Shown here one piece after another: positions 9,601-61,963 of a stretch of DNA of 64,000 nt. Position 1 is the stretch's first letter; each line of letters opens with the position of its first letter. The stretch is from Escherichia coli. GTDB taxonomy: Bacteria; Pseudomonadota; Gammaproteobacteria; Enterobacterales; Enterobacteriaceae. Made by a program: the position numbers and the translations under genes. The DNA lies in assembly GCA_902500005.1 (NCBI GenBank), contig GCA_902500005.1_3678.1; one strand, written 5' to 3'. The notes beneath the pieces were generated by a model, which was not told where the DNA came from, did no database searches, and saw only the letters and a program-made list of their open reading frames with translations.

Positions 9601-10288
9601 CAAGATCGCACAAGAAATTTCGTCAAACAACTACGATGGCAACGGGTACCATAAATACGGTTGGTACATTAACAAGAACGGGCACGCCCAATTTATGGAT
9701 GTGTGGGTGAAAGGCAACATCAACGCCAGTTCTGGTAACTTCACAGGGGCAGTTAACGCCACCAGTGGTACCTTCCGTGGTGATGTTTATGCCAATAATG
9801 GTAGCTTTAGAGGCACCATAGATGCAACCGGAGGTACCTTCCGTGGTCGTGTAGAAGCTTCTGTTATCCGTGCTAACCAGTTCGAAGGTGCGATTGTTGC
9901 ACACAGGACTTACGGAGATTGTGCTCCAGTATATAACTCCCAGCAAAGGGTTTGCCGTTGGAGGTGGAGATACGTAGATAACGTTTCAGGTCAGGGTAAG
10001 AACGTAACATTCTTCTTTAAACTGAATGGTACTCTTGCCAGCTCCCAACTGAATGCATGGATAGCTGGTCATCAGATCCTTGCTGGCAAGAAGTATTTTA
10101 ACGACAACAACGGCATGTGTGCGGTAGGGATAACAGGTCTGGGTGAACAAACTATAGACATTGTTATCGAGATTTACACACCGTGGTCAACGTCGAGCGT
10201 GACAGGTGTCACAATCTCCTGTCCCACTGTGATCGTTAGTCGTTCTAACTCAAGCTTCCAGGGACCTTGGAACGAGTCTCACGACTAA
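6689..10288 (+). CDS. central tail fibre / host-specificity protein, lambda gpJ-like (1199 aa)
   Basis: Segments …APEAPVSVEVKQGYFAITLIPH…YYWYIRTTNAFGSSAFVE… and …KYVAGIQLGMEGSGGQ…FMVSANNFAVYNP… closely resemble lambda J FN3/C-terminal regions (from memory); internal coiled-coil repeats. Confidence 0.8.
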   Translation: MPIAMIDNIVASARSSSYDWNASKAALADSLNTVTTRTLDKIFEGNKSYRSQQDRQKLLRSSAAPCSVVYGKTRTSGLLAFLEQDSDRTLHCAIVLANHPLEGIEDILIDGNPISSYGDLVSWELHNDRKTSDPFMGTHCPSWSPDMIGRGISWLRASFRFDPNKFPFGLPNVTLVKVGKKCYDPRISKEVYTNNAALVILDYLRTYLKCPDETINWESFKEAANICDEAVKNADGTSERRYTINGEFDMDEAPASIMAEMLKACGADLSYVAGKYGLLVGAYYGPATMTLSEDCVCGEVKIYPEASFDKRSNTITGRFTSPTKGYSETDFPSVFVPEWIEKDGERKIIDIDYRFVTSPYQAQRVSAIFLRRARAGRIIEVTCNMRGFKFKPGRYVTMDLPSIGIVGQEMRVLEWEFTKKGGVKVKLRQDAKEWNDATGQLPDSGDVDIPISPSGVAQPQNFRYSVLQAGEVTHGVLAWDNVGTYAQNIVQVRKNGEIVWTAQTVEQFVKVEGLTKGSYTATVVATSYKGGVSPEAYCEFNIQAPEAPVSVEVKQGYFAITLIPHSRDLASVSTQYDFWTSGMTRLPDTSDATVTSKATRMGVGSTWTSEGLQNDKIYYWYIRTTNAFGSSAFVECAAHCYTSIEDLMPQIDAEFKKTETYKELTANLDNAVKEMDKNVGAVNDRVTSIFEELGDTIEGVVRETTEKFTGVNGEISALNSKLVAAQQSFDDKLAAESGRLGSLIETTNRSTVDLVNRKTQALSEQITATQGTLREELKNTESKLNSSIQETNKATTDLLNKTTEAIKQDLVAATGKITKLEDDVQKEVANLQASIQETNSTTVDLVNNTATAIRQELTSAKQEIVDEMGNIDELRATVSNTSKAVTTLDGKINAQWGAKIQVDSAGNKYVAGIQLGMEGSGGQVQSYFMVSANNFAVYNPGNGTATLAFAIKNNQAFLKDAFIENGTISSAKIAQEISSNNYDGNGYHKYGWYINKNGHAQFMDVWVKGNINASSGNFTGAVNATSGTFRGDVYANNGSFRGTIDATGGTFRGRVEASVIRANQFEGAIVAHRTYGDCAPVYNSQQRVCRWRWRYVDNVSGQGKNVTFFFKLNGTLASSQLNAWIAGHQILAGKKYFNDNNGMCAVGITGLGEQTIDIVIEIYTPWSTSSVTGVTISCPTVIVSRSNSSFQGPWNESHD

Positions 10289-11895: not shown

Positions 11896-12582
11896 ATGGC
11901 AGAGATTAAGTCGGATGTTAACCACATCCACACTCTGCCAGATTTTGTTCAGGGAGGTCTTGACTACCTGCCTGGAGATTTTCTGGCTGAGAAGGTTAAT
12001 TTAGTCACATTCTTAACCGTATACCTTAAAAGGTTGGAGGATGTTGATAAGATGCTGGTAGGTTTGGCTGAAGGAAGATTGCTTAACAATGCCAGCGGAA
12101 GATACCTTGACGAAGTTGGTAATCAACTTGGTATTCTTAGGAATGGACTTTCAGATGCTGATTTTCGTGCCACACTAATTATTCAGCAGGCCGCAGCATC
12201 AAGGGGCGGGACTCGCGAAGATGTCATCTCCACCTTGCGACAATTGTTCGGAAGAGACAATTTCGATACGTGGAAAGGAGACAACTTCAGGTTTGACATA
12301 AATATTAGAAAAACTTGCTTTGACATATTGCAGTCTATCGATCAGATCTTAGATATGCTACCATTGCCTTGTCATTTGCGTCTTACAGAATCGCAAGGGC
12401 AAGCTTTTGGTTTTGAAGGGGACTCTACAGCTCTTGGCTTCGGATCAGTATGGGAAGAAAACCAGTTTGGAGTTGGTGGGCTGGCTACTTTGCTGTATGT
12501 TCCTGACGTAAGACCTGATTGGGACACCACAACCATTTATTGTGAAAGTATTACAGTAAACGCAACTAGACAGGAGGGTTAA
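11896..12582 (+). CDS. tail structural protein (228 aa)
   Basis: ATG start; position between structural genes. Confidence 0.45.
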   Translation: MAEIKSDVNHIHTLPDFVQGGLDYLPGDFLAEKVNLVTFLTVYLKRLEDVDKMLVGLAEGRLLNNASGRYLDEVGNQLGILRNGLSDADFRATLIIQQAAASRGGTREDVISTLRQLFGRDNFDTWKGDNFRFDINIRKTCFDILQSIDQILDMLPLPCHLRLTESQGQAFGFEGDSTALGFGSVWEENQFGVGGLATLLYVPDVRPDWDTTTIYCESITVNATRQEG

Positions 12583-14654
12583 TGGCAACAGCTGTTTTTA
12601 AACCTTACCGTGATTACTCTACAATGGCTGCACGGTTTCATTACCGAACAGTTCAGGATACTGCCGTTCCTGGTAGGGATTATGATCATGTCGAGGGCGA
12701 TGTAACTATCCCAGTTGGGGCAACCAGTATTGAGATCCCCGTGGAAATTGTTGACAAATTACCCAACAGGTTGCCAAGAAGCTTCTTTATGGAGTTTTCA
12801 TCAAAATCTCAAGGGGTGATGATTGGAACACAAAGGGCGAAATGTACAATAGTTTCAGATGAGAATCTTGACAGGATATCTTGGGATACTGTTGAGGAGA
12901 GAATGTTTCACCCAAGATATTGGGTTACAACCACTCAGCAGACTGAAAGTACCTGTATTGTTGCAGATAACAACTGTTGTATTAACCGTTTAGTGTCAAG
13001 AACATATGGAGGTATGGCTGGGTGCATTTGGGAAACAGTTGACAAGTATGACCATTTCGGTATTGGGTTTGATGATCACTATGAGATGAGAAACACCAAG
13101 CTTTGGTTCAGAATGTCAATAACCAACGCCAGCAACTTCTCCACTCCTGAAAAGATGATTATGACTGTAGACCTTGTTGATGGCACAATCATCTATGTTC
13201 CTTTAGCTCAATATGCTGTCAGCATCTCAGAGGATAAGAATGTTGCAGAAATTCATATTGATTTTGAGGACTGCGTCGGGATGGACCAGAACAACAACAT
13301 GATGGGTGTTGATCCTCGGCAGGTGAGAAGGATTTTAATACCGCTTATGCCTAAAGACTGGGTAAGTAATAGCACAGACCCGAGAACGGAAAATGTAGAG
13401 TGTGAGTTGCGCCTAGATCTGCTTCAGCCAGACACAGGCTGGAAAATGATGCAACTTAACAATATCCAGGTGAGAGAGCACGATGTTGGGATCTGCACCG
13501 CATATGACGATATGTGGAACGTGTCTCCTTTAAGGGTGTTGAACAATATCAAGCGTCTGGGCTATACCGGAACCATAAACCATTATGTTGGTATGAGTCA
13601 TTATTATGACTACACATGGTCAGGAACCCAATGGTCTATAAACAGAACAGGAGCGCTAAACGCTGCAGCTTATAAATGGCATGATGATTTTATGTACAAT
13701 GCCAAACGACATAACTTCGACGTTATGCAATCTGTAAGTTTTGAGCTTTTCAGCGATGCCTGCCCGTTGGAATGGACCCAAAGAGACTGGAACGATAACT
13801 ACGCTAAAACAGGGTATACACCTTGTAGCTACCTCCTGTCTCCAACCATTGAAGAGGGTATGAATTTCCTTACTGCAGTATTTAAGAATTTTGCATCAGC
13901 CGCTATGAGAAACAACCTGCCAGTGATTATGCAGGTTGGTGAACCGTGGTGGTGGTACAATACCGATACTCGTAGACCTTGTATTTATGATTACCCTACA
14001 AAACAGGCGTTTTATGATGAGACAGGCGAGTATGCATTAGATATTGGGACTATTGACGATCCTAAAACTGGCGGTGTTTACGATAAGTATGTAGCATTTT
14101 GTCGTGGTAAGCTTGGCGCTCGTATTGCGGCTATTTCAAAGGCAATAAAGGCACACGCTGCATCAGCTCAGATGACAGCTCTGCTGTTTTTCCCAACCAT
14201 TATGGAAACCGAGCTTACGCAAAAGCTTAACCTTGCTGACCAATATAAAAAGGAAGCAGGTGCTCTTGATTTCTTCTGCACCGAGTGCTACGATTGGGTG
14301 ATGCAGGGAGGTATTGAAAAGGCAAAAGAGTCTGTAAACATACCTATCGTTAAGTTAGGTTGGCAACCGTCTGAAATACAATACCTTGCAGGGTTCGTTC
14401 CTAGTAAAGAGCTTGCTCCGGTATATGGTTACGACCCAACCAGGAATTACCAAGAATTTTTATGGAGATGTATTTGCGGAAACATGGCAACTATAGAGTA
14501 TAGATATCCTGAGGTAAAACAGTATGTGTGGGCATACCCGCAAGTAATGTCTGACAGCATCACTGTTACCGCTAGAGATTCTACCGTGCTTCATATGGGG
14601 CAGGTTGCTCTGAAAGGGTATGTAGAAGATGTTGTCCCGCCAGACTTCTCATAA
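12582..14654 (+). CDS. putative tail spike / receptor-binding protein (690 aa), possible carbohydrate-active domain
   Basis: ATG overlapping upstream stop, AGGAGGG RBS; N-terminal Calx-beta/Ig-like motif (GDVTIPVGATSIEIPVEIVD); Trp/Tyr-rich C-terminal region. Confidence 0.45.
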   Translation: MATAVFKPYRDYSTMAARFHYRTVQDTAVPGRDYDHVEGDVTIPVGATSIEIPVEIVDKLPNRLPRSFFMEFSSKSQGVMIGTQRAKCTIVSDENLDRISWDTVEERMFHPRYWVTTTQQTESTCIVADNNCCINRLVSRTYGGMAGCIWETVDKYDHFGIGFDDHYEMRNTKLWFRMSITNASNFSTPEKMIMTVDLVDGTIIYVPLAQYAVSISEDKNVAEIHIDFEDCVGMDQNNNMMGVDPRQVRRILIPLMPKDWVSNSTDPRTENVECELRLDLLQPDTGWKMMQLNNIQVREHDVGICTAYDDMWNVSPLRVLNNIKRLGYTGTINHYVGMSHYYDYTWSGTQWSINRTGALNAAAYKWHDDFMYNAKRHNFDVMQSVSFELFSDACPLEWTQRDWNDNYAKTGYTPCSYLLSPTIEEGMNFLTAVFKNFASAAMRNNLPVIMQVGEPWWWYNTDTRRPCIYDYPTKQAFYDETGEYALDIGTIDDPKTGGVYDKYVAFCRGKLGARIAAISKAIKAHAASAQMTALLFFPTIMETELTQKLNLADQYKKEAGALDFFCTECYDWVMQGGIEKAKESVNIPIVKLGWQPSEIQYLAGFVPSKELAPVYGYDPTRNYQEFLWRCICGNMATIEYRYPEVKQYVWAYPQVMSDSITVTARDSTVLHMGQVALKGYVEDVVPPDFS

Positions 14655-14666
14655 TCAGGAGATAAA

Positions 14667-15707
14667 ATGTCAAAACCTAGTTTTCCATTAGAGATTTGGG
14701 CAGAGGAGGATCAGGTTCTGCCTAACACCCACAGACAGAACAGGCTACGCCCGATTGATGATTTGTGGAGAAAAGGTTGGGATCTTGGTCAAAAGCCCTC
14801 ATGTGAAGAACTTAACTATATTTTCAATATGCTCGGGACTTGGGCAAAATACATTGCTGACGAGCAGATCCCAGCTCAAGAAGGCCGTTATCTGGTACGT
14901 GATAATAACTTGAGCGATCTTTTGAACATTCCTGTTGCCCGTAGAAACCTTGGGATTATCACTAAGGAAGAGGCAGACGCCAGGTATGTAAAAGTTACAG
15001 GTGATACAATGACAGGCCCCTTGGGGTTGCAACGTATCAACTTTAAAGCTGCCGAGACAGATAAGGCTTGGATAGAGACAACTATTGGCCCAGATAAGAC
15101 AACCCTCGACTTTGGGTTAAGTGATAATACCGGGTCGTTTGATGATGGTGGTACATCTACAGTAGATGCGTTTCGTTGGAGATTCCAGCCAACTCAGCCG
15201 GATATTAATCCAGAGTTCACTTTGATGTACCTTAACGCGATCACGGCTAATCGTGCGCTGTTGAAAGTGGTAGGCAATGTTGAAGTTGTCGATAACATGA
15301 GGTGCAATAACCTTACTATCAGCAATACAGCAACATTCACCAACTGTAATGTGGCCAGTCAGTTGACGGCTGGGTCAGTATATGTTAATGGTGGTGCAAG
15401 TTGTGACAGTATGGTTGTAAGAAGCCAGCACTGTGTTGTCGGTAACAGAAATGTGGTGCGCTCCGTGAATGGAGTGACGGCTAACGGTAACGGTGATGTA
15501 ACGATCACTATCCCGCAGACAGGTGTGCAAGACATCAGAATCGGTGCAAGACTTGTGGACGGCGTTTCTGAATCTCCAATCCGCAACGGCTACGTTGTCA
15601 CAGGCTGGCATTTCGGTGACAAAAAAGAGATGCGTGGTTCAACCTACTGGGCAGGACCTTTACAAAAACTTGTAAATGGTCAATGGATCACTGTTAATTA
15701 TGCATAG
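14667..15707 (+). CDS. tail fibre protein, paralog A (346 aa)
   Basis: Paralogous to 16722..17765 along its length; C-terminal …QKLVNGQWITVNYA shared. Confidence 0.6.
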   Translation: MSKPSFPLEIWAEEDQVLPNTHRQNRLRPIDDLWRKGWDLGQKPSCEELNYIFNMLGTWAKYIADEQIPAQEGRYLVRDNNLSDLLNIPVARRNLGIITKEEADARYVKVTGDTMTGPLGLQRINFKAAETDKAWIETTIGPDKTTLDFGLSDNTGSFDDGGTSTVDAFRWRFQPTQPDINPEFTLMYLNAITANRALLKVVGNVEVVDNMRCNNLTISNTATFTNCNVASQLTAGSVYVNGGASCDSMVVRSQHCVVGNRNVVRSVNGVTANGNGDVTITIPQTGVQDIRIGARLVDGVSESPIRNGYVVTGWHFGDKKEMRGSTYWAGPLQKLVNGQWITVNYA

Positions 15708-15721
15708 ATCGGAGGACTAGC

Positions 15722-16306
15722 ATGAAAATACTTCAAGAGTTTAAACTTTACCAACCGGGATCTGGCGAATACCACTCCAACAAGGAAACCAAGGAGCTGA
15801 CCCCTCAAGAGGTCGAGGATTACACCGCATACACTGGGTATTTTTTACGTAATGATGATGGTGATTGGTATGTGCAGTCACGAACATTACGACAAGAAAA
15901 TCCAGGGTGTATCTTCCTACTTGTTGACGAGAAGGGAATTCTTAAGACATCTACAGAAGAACCTGATGCCTTATGGCCTGCTCCAGGTCTTCGTGTGGTT
16001 ATCGCCAAAAAAGAAGAGGTACCAGAAAACATTATGCTTCACCACGACGCTTTGCGTTTAGTTGGTGATGAATTTGTCACAGACAATGAATTCTTTGTTC
16101 AACAGGCAGAGGGTGTCATAGAGACAGAACTTGCTTGGGCTACTGCTAGAATTGGTGCCTATCAAGACATGATTGACCTTGAATATGATCTTACTGATGA
16201 CCAGAAACGTAACATCAGAGATTTGAAAATGTACAGGGTAAAACTTCTTGAAATAGATACATCTAAAGCCCCTGACATTTTCTTCCCGGAGCGACCTACC
16301 CTCTAA
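15722..16306 (+). CDS. hypothetical fibre-associated protein (194 aa)
   Basis: ATG with GGAGG RBS; between the two fibre paralogs. Confidence 0.45.
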   Translation: MKILQEFKLYQPGSGEYHSNKETKELTPQEVEDYTAYTGYFLRNDDGDWYVQSRTLRQENPGCIFLLVDEKGILKTSTEEPDALWPAPGLRVVIAKKEEVPENIMLHHDALRLVGDEFVTDNEFFVQQAEGVIETELAWATARIGAYQDMIDLEYDLTDDQKRNIRDLKMYRVKLLEIDTSKAPDIFFPERPTL

Positions 16307-16317
16307 GAGGAGGTGTT

Positions 16318-16632
16318 GTGGAGTTGGATTTGGCGGCATTGTACGGTATCTGCATGGGTACCGTTGTCCCGATCTGTGTATGGGCTTTCAACCAGTGGCA
16401 CACCAAATGGAAAGGCATTTCCAAGAGGTTGGATGAGCTGGAGAAAGACCTCATCTTAGTGAAAAACAGTATGGTTACAAAAGATAAACTTGATTCCGTT
16501 ATAGAGACCCGGTTAAGCAAGCTAGAGGCCGATATTAACGACCTTAAGCAGGATGTCAGGACAGATGTCTCCGGCATCAGAGCCGATGTACAAAAGATTT
16601 TGCACATGCTCGTAGAGCATAGTAAAAGGTAA
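16318..16632 (+). CDS. small membrane/coiled-coil protein (104 aa)
   Basis: GTG start after GAGGAGG; hydrophobic N-terminus then heptad-like region. Confidence 0.4.
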   Translation: MELDLAALYGICMGTVVPICVWAFNQWHTKWKGISKRLDELEKDLILVKNSMVTKDKLDSVIETRLSKLEADINDLKQDVRTDVSGIRADVQKILHMLVEHSKR

Positions 16633-16721
16633 ACAAAGGTCAGAACGGAAAGGACTCCGTTCTTGCATTTTGTTCCCTAAAGTGTTAAAATAGTCCTAAG
16701 GAATTTTCTCAGGAGAACGTG

Positions 16722-17765
16722 ATGACTAAACCAGTTATCCCTCTTGATATTTGGGCCAATCAGGATGTTGTGCTTGAAAATACGGGAGAGTTGAATAAGT
16801 CTCAACCAAAAAAAGAAGAGAGATTGAAAGGTTGGGATATGACACAAAGAGTGGCATGTGAAGTTGTTAACTTTGAACTTCACATGCTTTCTGCGTGGTT
16901 AAAGCATTTAACAGAAGATGTTGTCCCAGGATGGGATAATAGATTCTTAAGGGTCACTAATAATCTAGCAGACGTTCCAGACAAAGCTGCTGCACGTCAA
17001 GTTCTCAATGTATACTCGCCTGAAGAAATGGACGATCTGTATGTTGACAAGTCTGGAGACATAATGACTCAGACTCAAACTTTAGGCCTTCAAAGAATCG
17101 AGTTTGCATCTGCGTCAACAGACAATGCGGCAATATATACCACCATAACTCCAGACAAGACGACGATGGATTTCTGGATTATGGACAACATCGGTGGTGC
17201 TGACGGCACAGACCTTGATGATCCTTCTCACCAAATAGACGGGTTCCGTTGGAGATTTCAACCTTCTGGTGGGCAGCCTGTGTTTTCGGCTATGAAGCTC
17301 AATGCTATAACTGCCAACCGTGCAAGACTGGCCATCCAAGGAAATCTTGAATGCAACGATGCAAAAAGTTCCTCTGCAAATGCCAATGCGGTCACGATAC
17401 CAAGAGCCACTGTTAACGGACAACAATCCTGCGGAAGCGCTCAAATAGGTGGAAGAGTTGATTGTAACGATGAAACAGTCAGGGGTCAATATGCAACAGT
17501 TGGTGGAAGAAACGTGGTCCGCAGGGTAAATGGTAACGGCGCAGACAGTAGTGGTAACCTTACTATCCCTATGCCCAGCAGAGGGGTTGATGATGTAAGG
17601 ATAGCAAACCGTTTCAAAACCACCTACAGAGAGTCAAGAGTCTACCCTGGACATGTGATGTGCTCTGGTAACTACGCTTATAAACACCCTTATCAAGGTG
17701 ATTACTGGACAGGTGCTATCCAAAAACTTGTAAATGGTCAATGGATCACTATATCTTATGCTTAA
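16722..17765 (+). CDS. tail fibre protein, paralog B (348 aa)
   Basis: ATG 6 nt after AGGAG (track start 16719 is GTG); paralog of 14667..15707. Confidence 0.6.
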   Translation: MTKPVIPLDIWANQDVVLENTGELNKSQPKKEERLKGWDMTQRVACEVVNFELHMLSAWLKHLTEDVVPGWDNRFLRVTNNLADVPDKAAARQVLNVYSPEEMDDLYVDKSGDIMTQTQTLGLQRIEFASASTDNAAIYTTITPDKTTMDFWIMDNIGGADGTDLDDPSHQIDGFRWRFQPSGGQPVFSAMKLNAITANRARLAIQGNLECNDAKSSSANANAVTIPRATVNGQQSCGSAQIGGRVDCNDETVRGQYATVGGRNVVRRVNGNGADSSGNLTIPMPSRGVDDVRIANRFKTTYRESRVYPGHVMCSGNYAYKHPYQGDYWTGAIQKLVNGQWITISYA

Positions 17766-17776
17766 AAAGAGGGTAA

Positions 17777-18043
17777 ATGAAACTAACTCAGTTTTTATGG
17801 GGACTGGTTGCGGCATCTGATGACCCTACGAAAGTGTCCCAAACTAAGCTATGGTCGAACATAGGCATGGCGGTGATGACTGGGGTGTTTATTCATATGG
17901 GGTATAATGATACGCTTCCTGAATGGTATGCGTGGATATACGCGCCTTCAGTAGCTTGCCCCCAGCTTATTAGCAAATTCATCTCGCTCCGGTGGGGTTG
18001 CCAGCACCCTGACCACGTTAAAAACGAAGAGCAAAAAGCTTAA
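17777..18043 (+). CDS. small hydrophobic protein (88 aa)
   Basis: ATG start; three hydrophobic segments. Confidence 0.4.
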   Translation: MKLTQFLWGLVAASDDPTKVSQTKLWSNIGMAVMTGVFIHMGYNDTLPEWYAWIYAPSVACPQLISKFISLRWGCQHPDHVKNEEQKA

Positions 18044-18052
18044 GGAGAAATC

Positions 18053-19798
18053 ATGGCGCAAGACATGACAAGCTTTGAGCAGGCGGTAGATCAAGTAATT
18101 GTTGATTCTGAACGTTTGCACTTGGTTGTCAACGGTAACGCTGTGGATGAAGTTGTCGTAGAGGATGGGACCACCATCCCTACGGTACGAAAAGCCATGC
18201 TTGACAACCTTTATTTTAAAACGCCACCGATCCCTTGGGCGTATGGTGCATCCACAACAGTTTTTAACCAGCTGTACGAGTTTAAAGGGGACACAGGCCC
18301 TCAGTGGTGGTACGCTCCCGCAGCATCAAAATCTAACCCGGTTAGAATGCCAGCAGATCCTTCACAATCTCCAAACTGGAGATTATATACCGACTCTGCA
18401 GTAATGGCAAAATACTACGCAAAACTTAACAGCCCGAGGTTCGAAGGTGACCCACGAGTACCTACACCTCCAATGGACGATAAGTCAGAGTCCATAGCAA
18501 ACACAGAGTTTGTTGTTGACTATGTTGATAGCATATTTAAAGCCATGGAGGGGATGAAAGTTACTGTAGGGTCTTTGGTGGTAAAAGGTCTTACAGAACT
18601 CGCTAACACTATAGTTGGTGGCACCCTTACCTTACATGGACCTGTTAATGGGGCAGATTCTACTGCACGCTTTAGGAATCTAATCCTCACGGCAAATACT
18701 TCTACACTTACTTTTGCGTGGAGCGATCCTAAGCATGCAGACTGGAGAAGTACAGAGCTGCAACCTCATGAAGTGTCCACCCACAGGGTTATAGCTGACA
18801 CTATAACTTCTGGGAAACCAGTGGCTAATAATAACGATGTGCATTTTGATGGTCTGGGTAATAACTTTTTTGACTACGTGTACATTCGTGGTAATGCCAT
18901 GAAGGCAGCAACCGAACCGACATTGCAGGTAGATGGGACCACCAGGGTTAAGAACCTTGAGGTGACAGGTACCGTTACAGGGATAACATACTCTGTCGAT
19001 GGCACCATGATCTACCCTAGCTATATTGAAAGCACTGGTGATGCATTGATAAATGGCGATTTGGAGGTTGGCGGGTCTGTAGTTATTCGAGGTACGGCCT
19101 CTATCCAAAACATAGCTCTGAATACCTTAAGAGTCAATGAGCGTGCAACTTTTGAAGGAGAAGGGCTTACAGCCAACAAAGGTGTAATTACCGAGCTGAC
19201 AACAACCACTTTAACTGCAACAACTGCAAACTCTGAAAACTGCAACGTTACCCGCAACTTGCAGGTAAATGGAGATGTCAGTTTAAACGCAGCAGGGACT
19301 GGCACCACCTCTGTTCACAACCTTGAAATATCCGGCACGGTGACTGGGTGGTTGCCTGACTTCTCTAATGTCAACTTTGTCTGTAATGGCATTAACTCCA
19401 GTGGCAAGATAACCACCTCTCAAGAAATTGAGGCGGGTAAAACCATTACTGCCCCTACTTTCCACGCAGGAAAGGTAGATTTTGATTTAGAGGAGGTTGA
19501 CGCGTCCAGTGGGACATGGACACCTAACGGGCAGGCCAGTATGTATGTTGTTCACGCGAAAGGGGATTTTACAATAGGACAGTGGCCTGGGACATCAGCG
19601 GAAGATAAACCTTATCCATTCACTGCGGTTATCTATGTAATTCAGGATGCTGTAGGTCACAACGTGACTTTGCACGATAAGTATGCTATCCTGTCGGCAA
19701 CACCTGTTATTAACAACAAGGCTAACAGTGTTACCTTGCTGCAATTAACGTATTGTGGTGTTGGTGATATCGTAGACGTAGTAATTGCACAACGTTAA
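18053..19798 (+). CDS. tail fibre/spike protein (581 aa)
   Basis: ATG after AAGGAG; repetitive T/G/N-rich beta-rich composition typical of fibre proteins. Confidence 0.5.
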   Translation: MAQDMTSFEQAVDQVIVDSERLHLVVNGNAVDEVVVEDGTTIPTVRKAMLDNLYFKTPPIPWAYGASTTVFNQLYEFKGDTGPQWWYAPAASKSNPVRMPADPSQSPNWRLYTDSAVMAKYYAKLNSPRFEGDPRVPTPPMDDKSESIANTEFVVDYVDSIFKAMEGMKVTVGSLVVKGLTELANTIVGGTLTLHGPVNGADSTARFRNLILTANTSTLTFAWSDPKHADWRSTELQPHEVSTHRVIADTITSGKPVANNNDVHFDGLGNNFFDYVYIRGNAMKAATEPTLQVDGTTRVKNLEVTGTVTGITYSVDGTMIYPSYIESTGDALINGDLEVGGSVVIRGTASIQNIALNTLRVNERATFEGEGLTANKGVITELTTTTLTATTANSENCNVTRNLQVNGDVSLNAAGTGTTSVHNLEISGTVTGWLPDFSNVNFVCNGINSSGKITTSQEIEAGKTITAPTFHAGKVDFDLEEVDASSGTWTPNGQASMYVVHAKGDFTIGQWPGTSAEDKPYPFTAVIYVIQDAVGHNVTLHDKYAILSATPVINNKANSVTLLQLTYCGVGDIVDVVIAQR

Positions 19799-19806
19799 TA
19801 TATCTA

Positions 19807-19832
19807 ACCGCTCCTGACGGGGCGGTTTTCTT
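19807..19832 (+). terminator. putative terminator/attenuator hairpin
   Basis: ccgctcctgacggggcgg hairpin + ttttctt. Confidence 0.35.
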
Positions 19833-19846
19833 ATCTGGAGAACACA

Positions 19847-22800
19847 ATGCTTCCAATCCCTTTGCTAAAACTTGGTCGTCATTTCCTCGATAAGAGGGGT
19901 GGAATTAAGGAACTTGCTGTTCTGTCATACCCAATAGACAACAGTGATGGTACAAGCAACACAGTATCCTATGTAAATAGCTTAGCTATACTTTTTGATG
20001 ATGGTCAGCTTAATATTACTGGCTATAACAAGTTCGGAGAGTGCCGCACTGGGGATCGTAGCCCTATAAACTATCCGAGCGAAACAGCCTGGAATGTTGA
20101 TCATGTGTGGAGAGCAGACCGCGCGTTTGTGATCCGGACTTTTGATAACCAGTTTTTCTACATCGGCTGCACTGCAGGTCTTATCGGATCCACTGCGGCA
20201 GGCGGTAATGATGTTTGCGTAAACGAGTGGACACCACTCCCAGAGCAGATTGTTAAAGGATTGCACCTTGACACCCACCCAGAACGCCTTATTGAGGTGA
20301 TGGGCGGTATTAACAACACTGTCTGGGTTATTGCAGAGGCAGAAGGTACTGGCATACTTAACCTGTATGGATCTGGTAACAACACCTACGGATCTTTGCA
20401 TGTAGATAAAAATCAGCATGCAACCCCTGTAAAGATTGGTGAGACATCGGAAAATCCTGAAACAGGCCCTTGGAAAAACCCAAGCATCAACTGTGAGGTG
20501 CATGACAACTCTGTTATTTTCGGTGGTCCTAGGGGTTTCTGGATTGCTGGATACGACTTTCTGAGAAATAACAGTAGAAACGACCTTGTTTGGCCTCCTG
20601 TGCAGATTACTCGTAACGATTTGAGGGGCATTCCTGCAGATGAGGAGTGGAAAGGGTTTATGTGTGGTCCTAACGGGGCAGTAATTGCTACACAGAGGAT
20701 GCATAGACCCGATGACCAGCAGCTTGTTAACGTATTTTATGGTCAAAACATTTGGGGAGATGATACATGGCGGGAACTGAATATCACCTACACCCATGAG
20801 GTAATGATGGCTCGTGGGTACGGCACAAGTGGCATTTTCTTCAATAATGGCACTAAGCAGTATCGTGGGTTCTCTCGCAACTTATGTAATGATATTGGTG
20901 CACAATCTGCAAACAATAGTCCTAGGGCCGATTTTATCCACTATCAAGCTCTTGCTACAGCTAAATATGTTGAGCAACGCCTGCCAGTCAGCTGGACAGA
21001 GAGTGTTTATTTCCAAGGCATCCACAGAGAAGGTTTCTTAGGGACCTTTACTGTTGTTAATGGTAAACTTTGGTGGTCAGGTATCCCAAGGGGAAGTTTT
21101 ACAGGCTCTAATAACCTGTTTGGCGGCAGACTTAATAGTCAGGGGTTCACAGAGGTTCCTGAGAATTGGTATAAAAATGTCCCAGTAGACAGTTGGGGCG
21201 TTGATGATATTTTCGACGTTAATGGTGTTAGCAGTGTTAGCAATATCTACATTGGTGACACGGTCAAGATGAAATTGAAGCCTCAGCCAGAGGGAGCTAC
21301 GTTCATCATTGACAAGATTGAACTGGTGAATGCTGCAGGTACGGTTGTTACAGATGCAAATTACCAATTCTCCACCAACTGGAACCACGGCGGGGCCAAC
21401 GAAGTTGTTGTTACCCAGTATAACAGAAATGTTAACAGACGTGGCCTGTACTCTGTAAAAATAACCTATCATGACAAGCATGGCACAGGCAGAACTCACA
21501 CGACAAGGACTTTGAACTGGAACACCATAGTTCCTGCGTATCCGTCCAACGGCAAGTGGCATACCGTTGGTAGAAACAAGCAGTTCCATGTTAACGATAC
21601 TGTATACTTTGGGCTGAATGGGACCCAGCCTGCAGTAGAAGGGGATACATCGTATATGGTCAGACTCCACAGAATGGATGCTGGATCAGTCACTTATGAT
21701 GTGACCCAAGAGATCTACGATCAAAGACGCGCCACGTATGACAATATTGTGAAAACACAAGCCTTGTGGGAGTTCAATCCTAATGGCAAGGGTGGTAAAA
21801 TGTTGCAGGTTAATGAGCAGAACGGAACGTCGTTGACTGTTCACGAACACCCAGACCCTTGGCCTGATCCTGGAAAACCTCACCCGGGAGCTCGTACACT
21901 GAAAATTGTCAGCCATGATGCAGGATATTTCGGAATACGCTGGGAAGCTACAGTAAGATATGTCGACGGGACAACAAACAACATAGGGATTACACTTGGC
22001 GGCACTAGTGAAGATAGCTCGCTGAAAATTGCCTACACGCCCAGAGGTATCTCTATTGATAATATGGATGTTGTTCGCAATGGTTACGGCGATGTGAATG
22101 TCAAAGTTACTCTTGGCGAACATCTTGGTGGGGAAAGGATCATCATGTATGCCTTTGATCATGATCCACGCACCAATGGAACTTATGCAAATCAGGCATG
22201 GAGTTACCTGATAAATGCACCTGAGCCGAATACTAAAGAGTTCTACTATGGTATGAAGCGAGATGTGTGCAAGAAAACAGGAACACATGACTGGATTGCT
22301 ATCTGCGTTAAAGATGAGCGCACAGCTTGGGATGAGCCTGTTAACAGATGGTTCATAGGTATTCCTACCAGAAGTGATAAGTATGTCGCAGAATATATTG
22401 TATGCATGGGCGGTACCAACCTAAACATGTGTTGGAACGAAGATGTAAACAAATACTCTGATTATGACTATATGAGGGATTACTCTTGTAATTTGTGGTT
22501 TAACCAAACTACAGGTTACCCTCCAAGACAGGCGAGAGTAAACCCTGCAATCTTCACAGACACGCAGGTTTTCTTGACAAAACAGGCCAACGAGGTTCAG
22601 ACCTTCAAGAATAAATACGATCCTAACAAGTGGTTCTACAACTGTTACGGCGCATTTTTCTGGGGACCTGGTGAGTTACCTGGTGGGGGATCTTGCTTGA
22701 ATGAGGCAACTTACGCAAGTGACTACATCATGGGGCAGGTCAAGAAGTATAAGATAATCCCCGGTCCTGAGACTTTGGGCAATGCCGTTGACCCTTATAT

Positions 22801-60537: not shown

Positions 60538-60933
60538 ATGAATAAGAACGTACGCCGCATCATGAACGAACTGGCAAACGATGAAAAAATTATTGATATG
60601 CATTTGGTCAACATTTGCCGCCGTTGTGTAACATATAACAACCGCGCCGCAAAAGCGCGTGAGATGAACGCAAAAGGCACCTTAAAGCCCTTTCAGGTGG
60701 TTGTAAAATCTATAACTAGCGCAGCAGGCCAGGCGCAGGACCACAACAACGAGAGCGCTAATATTGATCCGTCTTACGTAATGAAACGGATCCGGACTTG
60801 CAAGAATAAAGAGCAGGTATATAACGTCATAGATTGGCTGGACTCCCTGGGCGATGTGGTTTACAATAGGTTTTCTGCAGCTATCGAGATCCAGCTTGAC
60901 AGATTGGACGGGAAAGTACTAAAAACTTATTGA
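60538..60933 (+). CDS. hypothetical protein (131 aa)
   Basis: ATG after AAGGAAAAAG. Confidence 0.45.
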   Translation: MNKNVRRIMNELANDEKIIDMHLVNICRRCVTYNNRAAKAREMNAKGTLKPFQVVVKSITSAAGQAQDHNNESANIDPSYVMKRIRTCKNKEQVYNVIDWLDSLGDVVYNRFSAAIEIQLDRLDGKVLKTY

Positions 60934-60951
60934 GTTTATTTTTAGATGGCC

Positions 60952-60981
60952 TTGACACCAGGGCCATCAATAAAGTAAACT
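60952..60981 (+). promoter_or_regulatory. sigma70-like promoter inside a palindrome (copy 1 of a 45-bp direct repeat)
   Basis: ATGGCC-TTGACACCAG-GGCCAT; -10 TAAACT; 45-bp repeat 60936-60980 = 61557-61601. Confidence 0.5.
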
Positions 60982-61212: not shown

Positions 61213-61554
61213 ATGACTACTATGACCGCCTCAGAAAAAGCTATGCAGATCGCTGAACTGAAAAAACAGATCGCAGACCTTGAGAATAAGATCGATAACT
61301 TTGAAATCGACGAGGACAAGTACGACGAAAACTATGATGAATGGTTAGACGAGATCTACGGCGAAATTATGATCGGAAACATTTCTTTTCTTCCGTCGCG
61401 TATCCTCAAGGAGCTAGATCCTATCGCTTACCGCTGCGGATTTAGCGACTACATCGACAGCCTGGATATTGAGGACGATGAAGAATACCAGGAATTACAG
61501 ACAGAGTTAGAAGAAGCAAAAGAAGAGCTTGCGGAGCTGGAAGAAAACGAGTAA
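61213..61554 (+). CDS. highly acidic coiled-coil protein (113 aa)
   Basis: ATG after AAGGAG; Asp/Glu-rich (…DEDKYDENYDEWLDEIYGE…DIEDDEEYQELQTELEEAKEELAELEENE). Confidence 0.45.
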   Translation: MTTMTASEKAMQIAELKKQIADLENKIDNFEIDEDKYDENYDEWLDEIYGEIMIGNISFLPSRILKELDPIAYRCGFSDYIDSLDIEDDEEYQELQTELEEAKEELAELEENE

Positions 61555-61572
61555 GCTTATTTTTAGATGGCC

Positions 61573-61602
61573 TTGACACCAGGGCCATCAATAAAGTAAA
61601 CT
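61573..61602 (+). promoter_or_regulatory. sigma70-like promoter inside a palindrome (copy 2 of the 45-bp direct repeat)
   Basis: Identical to 60936-60980 element. Confidence 0.5.
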
Positions 61603-61643: not shown

Positions 61644-61889
61644 ATGGCAGCACTAATCACCAAATATTATGCCCCTACCAACACCAAAAGCGCCCGTATC
61701 ATGGTAAAAGGCTTCGGACGTAAAAAGGTGTACACCTGGGATTATGCCTTAGACACGGAAGACAACTACACCAACGCAATGACCGATTTTATTAATGAAC
61801 TAAATAAGCAGATCTTGACAAGTTATAAAGTGACCGATATTGCTTATATAGGTGAAGGCGGGATCTGTTTTGTAGGCATTGTGAAATAG
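61644..61889 (+). CDS. hypothetical protein (81 aa)
   Basis: ATG after TAGGAG. Confidence 0.45.
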   Translation: MAALITKYYAPTNTKSARIMVKGFGRKKVYTWDYALDTEDNYTNAMTDFINELNKQILTSYKVTDIAYIGEGGICFVGIVK

Positions 61890-61963
61890 TTATTTTTTCG
61901 GTGGTCCTGGTTGCAGGGCCATCTATAAAGATAATTTATTAACACCATGAAAGGAGAAAGTAC

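Follow-up and report, generated by a model that had tools for sequence, protein, structure and literature searches.

Concerted evolution by gene conversion occurs in duplicated bacterial genes, for example tufA and tufB in Salmonella. Phage fibre genes are said to be mosaic in general (Sandmeier 1994), and in T-even phages the distal tail fibre locus gp37/gp38 reportedly undergoes recombination between conserved motifs (Tetart et al. 1998).

The tail fibres S and S′ of phage Mu, with the assembly proteins U and U′ (PDB 5YVQ, 8JU3), carry two alternative tips for LPS recognition, which are encoded by two 3′ gene halves of opposite orientation and switched by Gin inversion of the G segment, each half having its own chaperone that stays on the fibre tip. 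The short tail fibre of Pectobacterium phage phiTE (9CUY; Certrevirus, Vequintavirinae) is a 554-aa protein with a coiled coil and Ig-like domains that is attached to the baseplate wedge, on which residues 3–92 form the joint docking (PMC11972413). For rV5 itself, the parts of the literature considered here (Kropinski et al. 2013, PMC3606486; Maffei et al. 2021, PMC8594841) already give a fibre paralogy of 42.3%, the presence of both proteins in virions and the homology to Mu GpS/GpU; within those parts the paralogy is given at the protein level only, and an identical 30-nt block, an excess of identity at synonymous sites and conversion from one paralogue to the other go unmentioned.

Two fibre paralogues and a single chaperone gene

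The window, the whole 64-kb stretch of DNA analysed, is 100% identical to Escherichia phage CarlMeissner (Bas48, a BASEL phage of Vequintavirus), and the locus holds two paralogous short tail fibres of this rV5-like myovirus. Copy A (14667–15707, + strand, 346 aa) is an orthologue of rV5 gp33 and 100% identical to CarlMeissner bas48_0035, annotated ‘short tail fiber protein’; copy B (16722–17765, + strand, 347 aa) is an orthologue of rV5 gp30 and of the identically annotated bas48_0038. Both open reading frames match phrog_4465 (tail fiber) end to end (E = 1.8e-171 and 4.1e-166), and they are diverged paralogues, as had been predicted, with 43% protein identity (BLASTP, E = 2e-94) and 52% DNA identity in a codon alignment. 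The sizes of rV5 gp33–gp28 in the supplementary tables of that phage, with the numbering confirmed (346/194/104/347/88/581 aa), equal those of the genes at the window locus; no per-protein proteomics rows were found under gp names in these tables. The original prediction had named virion proteomics in which only one paralogue is structural as evidence that would speak against it, an objection that is inapplicable, as gp30 and gp33, along with the Tfa gene product gp32, are listed among the proteins detected in rV5 virions in the proteomics account of PMC3606486.

Judged by homology, each copy starts with a domain for docking on the baseplate, continues as a shaft and ends in a C-terminal tip domain of the Mu-GpS type. 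The first of these, in copy A, spans aa 1–108 (14667–14990, + strand) and matches residues 1–111 of the phiTE short tail fibre (phmmer against 9CUY, E = 1.4e-19), whereas Mu S aligns only from residue 75 on. The tip domain of copy A (aa 286–343; 15522–15695, + strand) aligns by phmmer to residues 440–501 of Mu tail fibre protein S (5YVQ); that of copy B (17583–17753, + strand), placed by a BLASTP alignment and by its membership of the C-terminal domain profile, is diverged from it save for the block described below. When nine C-terminal domains, those of both paralogues among them, are combined into a profile, it matches Mu S (5YVQ) at E = 6.8e-10, its counterpart S′ (8JU3) at E = 3.2e-6 and the short tail fibre of phiTE at E = 8.5e-4. 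The terminal ~14 residues, which include the motif QKLVNGQWIT, have as aligned counterparts RPVQKNINGTWYNV in Mu S, RPIQYCINGTWYN in Mu S′ and KPIQKKVNGVWVTI in the phiTE fibre. The fibres thus share with phiTE a homologous docking domain and the same C-terminal motif; the searches gave a single matching place in the phiTE record, where no counterpart of the A/B pair was seen.

The predicted small downstream genes are present, all on the + strand. The 194-aa product of the first (15722–16306), the rV5 gp32 orthologue, is a Tfa tail fibre assembly chaperone (Pfam Caudo_TAP PF02413, E = 9e-12, above the curated cut-off; phrog_136, E = 2.2e-36). The second (16318–16632; phrog_5345, unknown function, E = 1.1e-48) encodes a 104-aa protein corresponding to rV5 gp31, hydrophobic in an N-terminal segment and coiled-coil-like over the rest, which Table S3 of the rV5 supplement annotates as ‘1 TMD’. 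An 89-nt gap 5′ of copy B holds a predicted terminator-like hairpin followed by a T-rich run (16642–16663, + strand), called by a consensus scan and unannotated in the Murica record. The 88-aa protein encoded 3′ of copy B (17777–18043; rV5 gp29; phrog_1322 ‘membrane protein’, E = 1.1e-32) has no Pfam match.

These genes do not form the duplicated cassette that had been proposed. Among the eight ORFs scanned in 11896–19798, only the gene directly 3′ of copy A has a Tfa-family match, the other seven having none, and copy B is followed instead by the 88-aa membrane protein gene. The single-fibre relatives Av-05, GAP31 and NINP13076 have the order fibre, Tfa, 104-aa, 157-aa and 88-aa membrane genes, and a fibre gene that follows the baseplate genes and precedes Tfa and small membrane genes is found in Av-05, NINP13076, GAP31 and PaulScherrer alike, so that copy B is extra. 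It occupies the site of the relatives’ 157-aa membrane gene, which is absent from the window. The 104-aa and 88-aa proteins are 32% and 52% identical to the syntenic 104-aa and 87-aa products of Av-05, respectively. Because the single-fibre relatives carry them, the membrane genes are a pre-existing conserved trio rather than accessories of each fibre; synteny with the single-fibre genera shows that only the fibre gene was duplicated.

In its homologous tip domain and terminal motif, its Caudo_TAP chaperone gene downstream of copy A and its two alternative tips for LPS recognition, the locus resembles Mu S/S′ with U/U′, and the detection of gp32 among virion proteins in the rV5 account may parallel the retention of the Mu chaperone on the fibre tip. 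Unlike in Mu, there are two complete co-oriented genes, both of whose products are reported from rV5 virions, with a single chaperone gene and a direct repeat. An invertible-segment switch of the Mu G, P1 C or shufflon-like type was rejected: each gene is complete, with a start codon of its own, the two are read from one strand and the repeat of 30 nt is direct. No match to an invertase family, such as Gin, Cin or Min, was found among the eight ORFs scanned in 11896–19798, and the CarlMeissner annotation lists no serine invertase at record positions 24004–53904. A diversity-generating retroelement was rejected likewise: its VR/TR pair would be ~100–150 nt long with adenine-specific changes, whereas the repeat is 30 nt long, exact and coding in both copies, with flank mismatches of all kinds (G/A, A/T, C/G, T/A and others); no RT-like ORF was present among the same eight ORFs.

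An identical 30-nt block in two diverged genes

The window contains exactly two copies of the 30-mer CAAAAACTTGTAAATGGTCAATGGATCACT, both on the + strand (15663–15692 in copy A and 17721–17750 in copy B), confirming the identical 3′ blocks of the original prediction. No further match was found in the window with up to 3 mismatches permitted, and 0 of 100 dinucleotide-preserving shuffles yielded any match. Both blocks are in frame and encode QKLVNGQWIT, four codons before the stop of the 346-aa and 347-aa ORFs. The block is the longest exact direct repeat found within coding sequence of the window; between the two genes the second-longest exact run is 12 nt, and the C-terminal domains are only 27–40% identical in amino acids (30-aa windows over alignment columns 286–345). 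More than 100 Vequintavirus genomes, sequenced independently, carry the repeat, which is therefore no assembly artefact.

At the protein level, comparison across the family indicates that QKLVNGQWIT is the conserved last segment of the tip domain, kept by purifying selection as far as Mu S and S′; in single-copy orthologues the segment reads QYLVNGQWVT or QKYINGGWYT, and its codons differ. Membership of a conserved domain accounts for the identity of the amino acids and leaves the identical codons unexplained. Purifying selection on ten residues, combined with codon bias and chance, could in principle have produced these codons without recombination, given that the motif is conserved as far as Mu S, that AAA, CAA and AAT are common in the module and that codon homozygosity is ~0.5 for K, Q and N. 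However, the same codon is used at 9/9 degenerate positions inside the block and at only 43/134 (32%) identical degenerate residues outside it (P = 3.6e-5 against that fraction), and the joint probability of ten identical codons under the codon usage of the tail module is 1.3e-4. For L, V and T, moreover, the codon is shared at just 2/30 conserved positions outside the block. In an uncultured sister lineage whose genes are arranged in the same order (A′, Tfa, 104-aa gene, B′, 88-aa gene), A′ and B′ both encode QKLVNGQWIT with synonymous differences at 7/30 positions, arguing that there is no nucleotide-level constraint on the block. We therefore reject chance or codon bias as the sole cause (P ~1e-4 to 4e-5) and regard an origin without recombination as very improbable.

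The block could alternatively be a functional nucleotide element, such as an internal promoter or translational coupling signal for the next gene, which lies 27–30 nt downstream, an RNA structure, or a protein-binding or dedicated recombination site. Its distance to the next start is similar in both copies (29 nt to 15722 and 26 nt to 17777), and the sequence around copy A has a better fold than shuffled versions of it (z = -3.0); but the two contexts fold differently, that of copy B no better than shuffles (z = -0.8), no + strand sigma-70-like promoter was called at either copy, and the block has no Rfam match. Synonymous changes in the block of HMD-6, SYGMH1, L010 and L029, the 7 differences between A′ and B′ despite the same downstream genes, and the other codons of the single-copy orthologues all speak against such an element, which we rejected and consider most improbable.

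Base-by-base inspection covered ~11 A and ~9 B alleles of rV5-like genomes. The two blocks are identical at 30/30 positions in the window, in three other genomes of its type (L014, L023, L026/L028) and in Aya, which has AAC in both copies, and at 28/30, 27/30 and 26/30 positions in L010, HMD-6 and SYGMH1, respectively. Synonymous substitutions, and even a change from L to F, are tolerated in the block of rV5-like genomes. Both paralogues are polymorphic for T/C at block position 15, which speaks for exchange between them but could also reflect parallel third-position transitions. As no unconverted rV5-like genome was found, we infer conversion in this lineage rather than observe it.

Exchange between the paralogues of a sister lineage

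No cultured representative of the sister lineage was found; INPHARED contains no DNA match to its contigs at ≥85% identity, and the proteins reach at most 74% identity to a record in that collection. In two independent assemblies, A′ (A′_L018 and A′_L025) departs from A′_L013 at 21 of its last 255 nt; at 18 of these sites it equals the genome’s own B′. At 3 of those 18 sites B′_L018 itself differs from B′_L013, such that the donor bears variants specific to the same genome’s paralogue. Within gene positions 916–996, all 17 differences of A′_L018/A′_L025 from A′_L013 match B′, and exact A′/B′ runs of 59 and 39 nt in L018 correspond to a region of 75% identity in L013. A shorter B′-matching patch is present in A′_L017, while A′_L013, which equals A′_L019 over the last 255 nt, is without these patches, and A′_L011 and A′_L020 agree with B′ in that region at no more than one or two isolated sites. 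Patches of ~20–80 nt from one paralogue are thus found in the other in some genomes of the sister lineage and are absent from others. Tracts that are present or absent in this way, with the same genome’s paralogue as donor, were seen in the sister lineage only, the rV5-like genomes showing just the shared T/C polymorphism.

A cluster of 21–22 differences between A′_L013 and A′_L018 at nt 351–493 was considered as a second B′-derived tract and rejected, since 8 sites match B′ against 6 that match the alternative; it is probably an exchange between A′ alleles.

Phylogenies of the two ends of the proteins disagree. The tree built from the N-terminal 110 aa joins B to B′ (199/200 bootstrap replicates) and A to A′ (200/200), whereas the one built from the C-terminal 61 aa unites A′ with B′ (200/200). 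In the sister lineage, the entire C-terminal domain has been exchanged between the paralogues and homogenised. Recent horizontal acquisition of copy B was rejected on the same N-terminal grouping, together with the finding that its closest relative outside Vequintavirus is less than 40% identical.

Independent uptake of the same tip segment by both genes from a third phage, through mosaic recombination between phages, has some precedent in horizontal sharing of the tip module: residues 287–344 of copy A are 57–59% identical to fibres of ~52-kb Salmonella/Escherichia phages (BP63, JEP7), and an unrelated 42-kb contig has a fibre ending in IQKLVNGQWITVGQL followed by a Tfa-like gene. Nevertheless, the same 30 nt are found in none of the third-party sequences: L016 differs from the block at 9/30 positions, no phage record outside Vequintavirus matches more than ~23 nt of the 30, and no donor lineage with the exact 30-mer was seen in INPHARED, IMG/VR or JGI/ENA metagenomes. 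A single exchange between genes lying 2 kb from each other is also more parsimonious than two independent gains of one exact 30-nt tract, and the donor in the sister lineage is the same genome’s paralogue; a third-phage origin is therefore improbable.

Origin of the block and its bearing on fibre evolution

Taken together, we consider it likely that the identical 30 nt are the silent footprint of short-tract ectopic gene conversion between the two fibre genes in the rV5-like lineage, seeded at their most conserved segment. The protein-constrained segment would already have been the most similar DNA between the copies (~23/30 positions, as in the sister lineage) and may have seeded heteroduplex formation or template switching, with the strongly diverged flanks halting extension and limiting the tract to at most 30 nt. 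Such an event would probably date to near the base of the rV5-like radiation. Because both copies already coded for the same ten residues, it would have been silent and probably neutral. A tract of at most 30 nt amid very divergent flanks is short for RecA-type recombination, and conversion within one genome is not fully separable from ectopic exchange with a co-infecting relative.

Conversion probably ran from B into A, as the rV5 block differs from B′ at 3–4 sites and from A′ at 6–7, a comparison that rests on few sites; part of the similarity behind this call could be ancestral, because Av-05 also has AATGGTCAATGG.

Conversion may instead be non-neutral, a reading that we regard as possible but doubtful. 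The one Tfa encoded after copy A would have to fold and cap both fibres, and conversion would be favoured because it keeps their chaperone-docking tip elements compatible (‘chaperone-constrained concerted evolution’). This would explain why tracts cluster in the last ~60 codons, why the tip domain of the sister lineage is wholly homogenised, and why the Tfa of two-fibre lineages has an N-terminal insertion that the single-fibre genera are without.

Gene conversion of this kind has parallels in both settings outlined at the outset. As in tufA/tufB, paralogues of one genome exchange short tracts, leaving identity patches, shared polymorphisms and segment-wise phylogenetic incongruence; the tuf copies are near-identical throughout, whereas here DNA identity is 52% and only the 3′ end, kept similar by protein constraint, undergoes conversion. 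As in T-even gp37/gp38, short conserved segments in diverged receptor-binding genes are places of homologous exchange; T-even exchange takes place between different phages and swaps adhesin specificity, whereas that at our locus is between paralogues of one genome and silent, and that in the sister lineage homogenises. Ongoing module exchange, as originally predicted, is upheld in part, as far as recombination or conversion at the 3′ ends is concerned, through the synonymous excess, the sister-lineage patches and the partitioned trees; as the converted tract alters no amino acid in this phage, it is a silent footprint by which no specificity was exchanged.

Fibre paralogy has long been known in this phage group, and no new system is revealed here. 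What is added is a sequence-level demonstration that duplicated receptor-binding genes within one phage genome exchange short tracts, with natural genomes caught with and without such tracts and one lineage in which the whole tip domain is homogenised. For rV5-like therapeutic phages, and for the prediction or engineering of host range, this means that the two fibre tips are evolutionarily non-independent; in fibre-gene phylogenies, segments have different histories. The finding is also relevant to designs that insert repeated sequences in phage genomes. The single-chaperone constraint, if true, would connect the sharing of a chaperone with how evolvable multi-fibre phages are.

The fibre locus and its 30-nt repeat

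Over bases 14000-19900 the window matches Escherichia phage CarlMeissner (Bas48, MZ501054.1, Vequintavirus murica) at 100% identity and 117 other rV5-like genomes at 90-100%, 103 of the 117 at 95% or above. The locus comprises fibre A (14667-15707, 346 aa, rV5 gp33), the tail fibre assembly chaperone Tfa (15722-16306, 194 aa, gp32), a 104-aa protein with one transmembrane domain (gp31), fibre B (16722-17765, 347 aa, gp30), an 88-aa protein (gp29) and a 581-aa protein (gp28); the BASEL annotation names both fibres short tail fiber proteins and gp32 a tail fiber chaperone. Junctions in this gene run measure 9-15 nt, except that 89 nt separate the 104-aa gene from fibre B. This spacer contains AGAACGGAAAGGACTCCGTTCT, a terminator-like hairpin with a T-rich run after it (16642-16663; a consensus match only, and without annotation in the phage Murica record), which suggests that fibre B may start its own transcription unit.

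The two fibre genes are paralogues: their proteins share 43% identity (E 2e-94), and their codon-aligned DNA 52%. Outside the repeat, the same codon is used at 43 of 134 (32%) conserved degenerate residues, so their synonymous sites are essentially randomised. Against this background, a 30-mer encoding QKLVNGQWIT occurs exactly twice, at 15663-15692 and 17721-17750, with zero occurrences expected by chance. Within this block, all nine degenerate residues share a codon (P = 3.6e-5 from the A/B same-codon rate, or 1.3e-4 from tail-module codon usage). The next-longest exact run between A and B is 12 nt, and the block is the longest exact direct repeat inside coding sequence in the whole window. 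The identical stretch in diverged paralogues that the original prediction had pointed out is therefore statistically real, by exact matching as well as codon statistics.

Several observations concern the wider window and the database records. The 690-aa protein upstream of fibre A (12582-14654), which other annotations call a lateral tail fibre bearing glycosidase/deacetylase domains, matches the TIM-barrel (E 4e-80) and N-terminal domain (E 7e-13) families that Pfam names 'non-contractile tail sheath protein', with a Calx-beta hit below threshold (25.6 bits, cut-off 27). A large lateral tail fibre gene contains an internal tandem repeat of coding sequence (9725-9852), made of two neighbouring 62-nt units with a spacing of 66 nt and 71% identity. 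A 49-nt element with an internal palindrome (GATGGCC...GGCCATC) and TTGACA occurs three times (60933-60981, 61554-61602 and 61888-61936; two copies 98% identical, the third 71%), probably as repeated regulatory sites. Sixteen GenBank records titled 'Campylobacter phage' match this locus of rV5-like E. coli phages, 15 of them with Campylobacter jejuni as host; four named records, MG065635, MG065647 and MG065654 among them, do so at 98.7-98.8% identity, and these host labels look doubtful.

Conservation of the peptide and drift of its codons

Fibre A residues 286-343 align to the C-terminal domain of the Mu tail fibre protein S (5YVQ), and a profile built from nine C-terminal domains retrieves Mu S (E 6.8e-10), Mu S' (8JU3, 3.2e-6) and the phiTE short tail fibre (9CUY, 8.5e-4). 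In the fibres as in these three proteins, the last ~14 residues contain P-[LIV]-Q-x-x-[IV]-N-G-x-W-x-x-[IV]. The N-terminal 108 residues of fibre A match the N-terminal domain of the phiTE fibre, which docks on the baseplate wedge (PMC11972413). Single-copy orthologues carry related peptides (QYLVNGQWVT in Avunavirus, QKYINGGWYT in Seunavirus, QYYINGSWIT in Justusliebigvirus), encoded by codons that differ from the rV5 block at 6-14 of 30 positions. QKLVNGQWIT is therefore a long-standing structural part of the tip domain, explained by selection at the protein level.

The tip module is also found in unrelated smaller phages: on a 42-kb viral contig (L016, 9568-11762) a 556-aa fibre terminates in IQKLVNGQWITVGQL and its gene precedes a Tfa-like one, and the ~52-kb Salmonella/Escherichia phages KM366099 (BP63) and MT764207 (JEP7) have fibres that share 57-59% identity with residues 287-344 of fibre A. 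It thus appears that the Mu-S-type tip is shared horizontally.

By scanning IMG/VR and metagenome contigs with a degenerate pattern for the block peptide, we recovered further rV5-like contigs together with an uncultured sister lineage (contigs L011, L012/L017, L013, L018, L019/L024, L020, L025 and L027; 86-140 kb in length, with a single fragment of 2.4 kb). Searches of INPHARED gave this lineage no match in DNA at 85% identity or more, and its proteins are at most 74% identical to any record there; its gene order, A'-Tfa-104aa-B'-88aa, is that of the rV5-like phages. Both A' and B' encode QKLVNGQWIT, yet 7 of 30 sites differ synonymously, which shows that the nucleotide sequence is not constrained. 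The block drifts among rV5-like genomes too: the copies agree at 30/30 positions in the window and in L014, L023 and L026/L028, at 30/30 in Aya (AAC replacing AAT in both), at 28/30 in L010, at 27/30 in HMD-6, and at 26/30 in SYGMH1 and L015, including an L-to-F change in B. The block region has zero Rfam family matches, no plus-strand promoter-like site was called at either copy, and RNA folding of the two contexts gave no common fold.

Probable conversion between the paralogues

The reading of recombination or gene conversion between the paralogues is supported mainly by comparison within the sister lineage. Over the final 255 nt of A' and B', A'_L018 and A'_L025, which come from independent assemblies, differ from A'_L013 at 21 sites, and A'_L019 is identical to A'_L013. 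At 18 of the 21 the base is that of the genome's own B', including three sites at which B'_L018 is itself unlike B'_L013. Between gene positions 916 and 996, all 17 differences are of this B'-matching kind, and across the ~105-nt segment holding the tract A' and B' are 91% identical in L018 versus 75% in L013. In A'_L017 the patch is shorter: 29 nt match B' exactly, with a diagnostic part of ~19 nt; A'_L011 and A'_L020 lack these patches, sharing no more than one or two isolated sites with B' there. Whether a natural genome of this lineage carries a B'-to-A' tract, and how long that tract is, therefore varies.

The otherwise 95% identical A' genes of L013 (7634-8674) and L018 (6151-7191) also differ at 21-22 clustered sites in gene positions 351-493. 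These differences are not derived from B'; they probably reflect recombination between A' alleles of different phages.

Neighbour-joining trees were built for separate segments, with support out of 200. The tree of residues 1-110 places B alongside B' (199/200) and A alongside A' (200/200). Its A clade adjoins the single-copy fibres of Avunavirus and Seunavirus, so the duplication predates the split of the rV5-like and sister lineages. In the tree of residues 286-346, A' instead pairs with B' (200/200), adjoining rV5 A, which indicates that homogenisation in the sister lineage took in the entire tip domain. The rV5-like tips stayed distinct, with 27-40% identity in 30-aa windows over alignment columns 286-345, just before the block, and the block is the only part they have in common there.

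We consider it probable that the block arose by conversion and became fixed close to the start of the rV5-like radiation. It differs from B' at 3-4 positions versus 6-7 from A', which suggests B as the donor. As the most similar DNA between A and B, this segment may have seeded the exchange, which divergent flanks would have held to 30 nt; since both copies presumably already encoded the same peptide, the event would have changed no amino acid. A T/C polymorphism at block position 15, present in both A (L029, Aya, HMD-6) and B (Aya, SYGMH1, L015, HMD-6), could reflect either further exchange or parallel transitions.

Gene context and the shared chaperone

Synteny with single-fibre relatives indicates that the fibre gene alone was duplicated, so the proposed duplicated cassette with fibre-specific small membrane proteins is not borne out. 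A Caudo_TAP gene directly follows copy A only. The single-fibre Vequintavirinae Av-05, NINP13076 and GAP31 have one fibre, then Tfa, then three consecutive small membrane genes (104, 157 and 87-89 aa; L002 5638-6701 and L004 5650-6719, compared with window 16318-18043), and PaulScherrer has a fibre, Tfa and one 113-aa gene. The window keeps its 104-aa gene (32% identity to the Av-05 counterpart) and its 88-aa gene (52%), with copy B between them in place of the polytopic 157-aa gene, which has no homologue within the 64-kb window.

This is a well-known and documented locus. Kropinski et al. (2013, PMC3606486) give 42.3% identity between gp30 and gp33, list both with gp32 among virion-detected proteins and propose recognition of two LPS chemotypes; Maffei et al. 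(2021, PMC8594841) describe two paralogous short tail fibres with one chaperone, homologous to the phi92-like single fibre and ultimately to Mu GpS/GpU. In the passages retrieved, neither paper mentions the nucleotide block or conversion, and the new element is a small evolutionary point of a type already familiar.

From homology and this literature, both fibres would trimerise and dock on the baseplate through their N-terminal domains; the Mu-S-type tips would fold with the help of gp32, which probably remains on the tip as in Mu. The LPS core is the presumed target of both, and the diverged A and B tips would be compatible with different core variants.

The Tfa proteins of the two-fibre lineages (window 15722-16306; L013 8689-9306; L018 7206-7820) carry a ~12-19-residue insertion near the N-terminus that is absent from Tfa of single-fibre Av-05, NINP13076, GAP31 and PaulScherrer. 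In Mu Tfa, the N-terminal domain is the fibre-binding part.

It seems unlikely that selection homogenised the tips because both fibres use the single chaperone gp32; if copy B does depend on gp32, this common chaperone would provide a selective reason to homogenise them.
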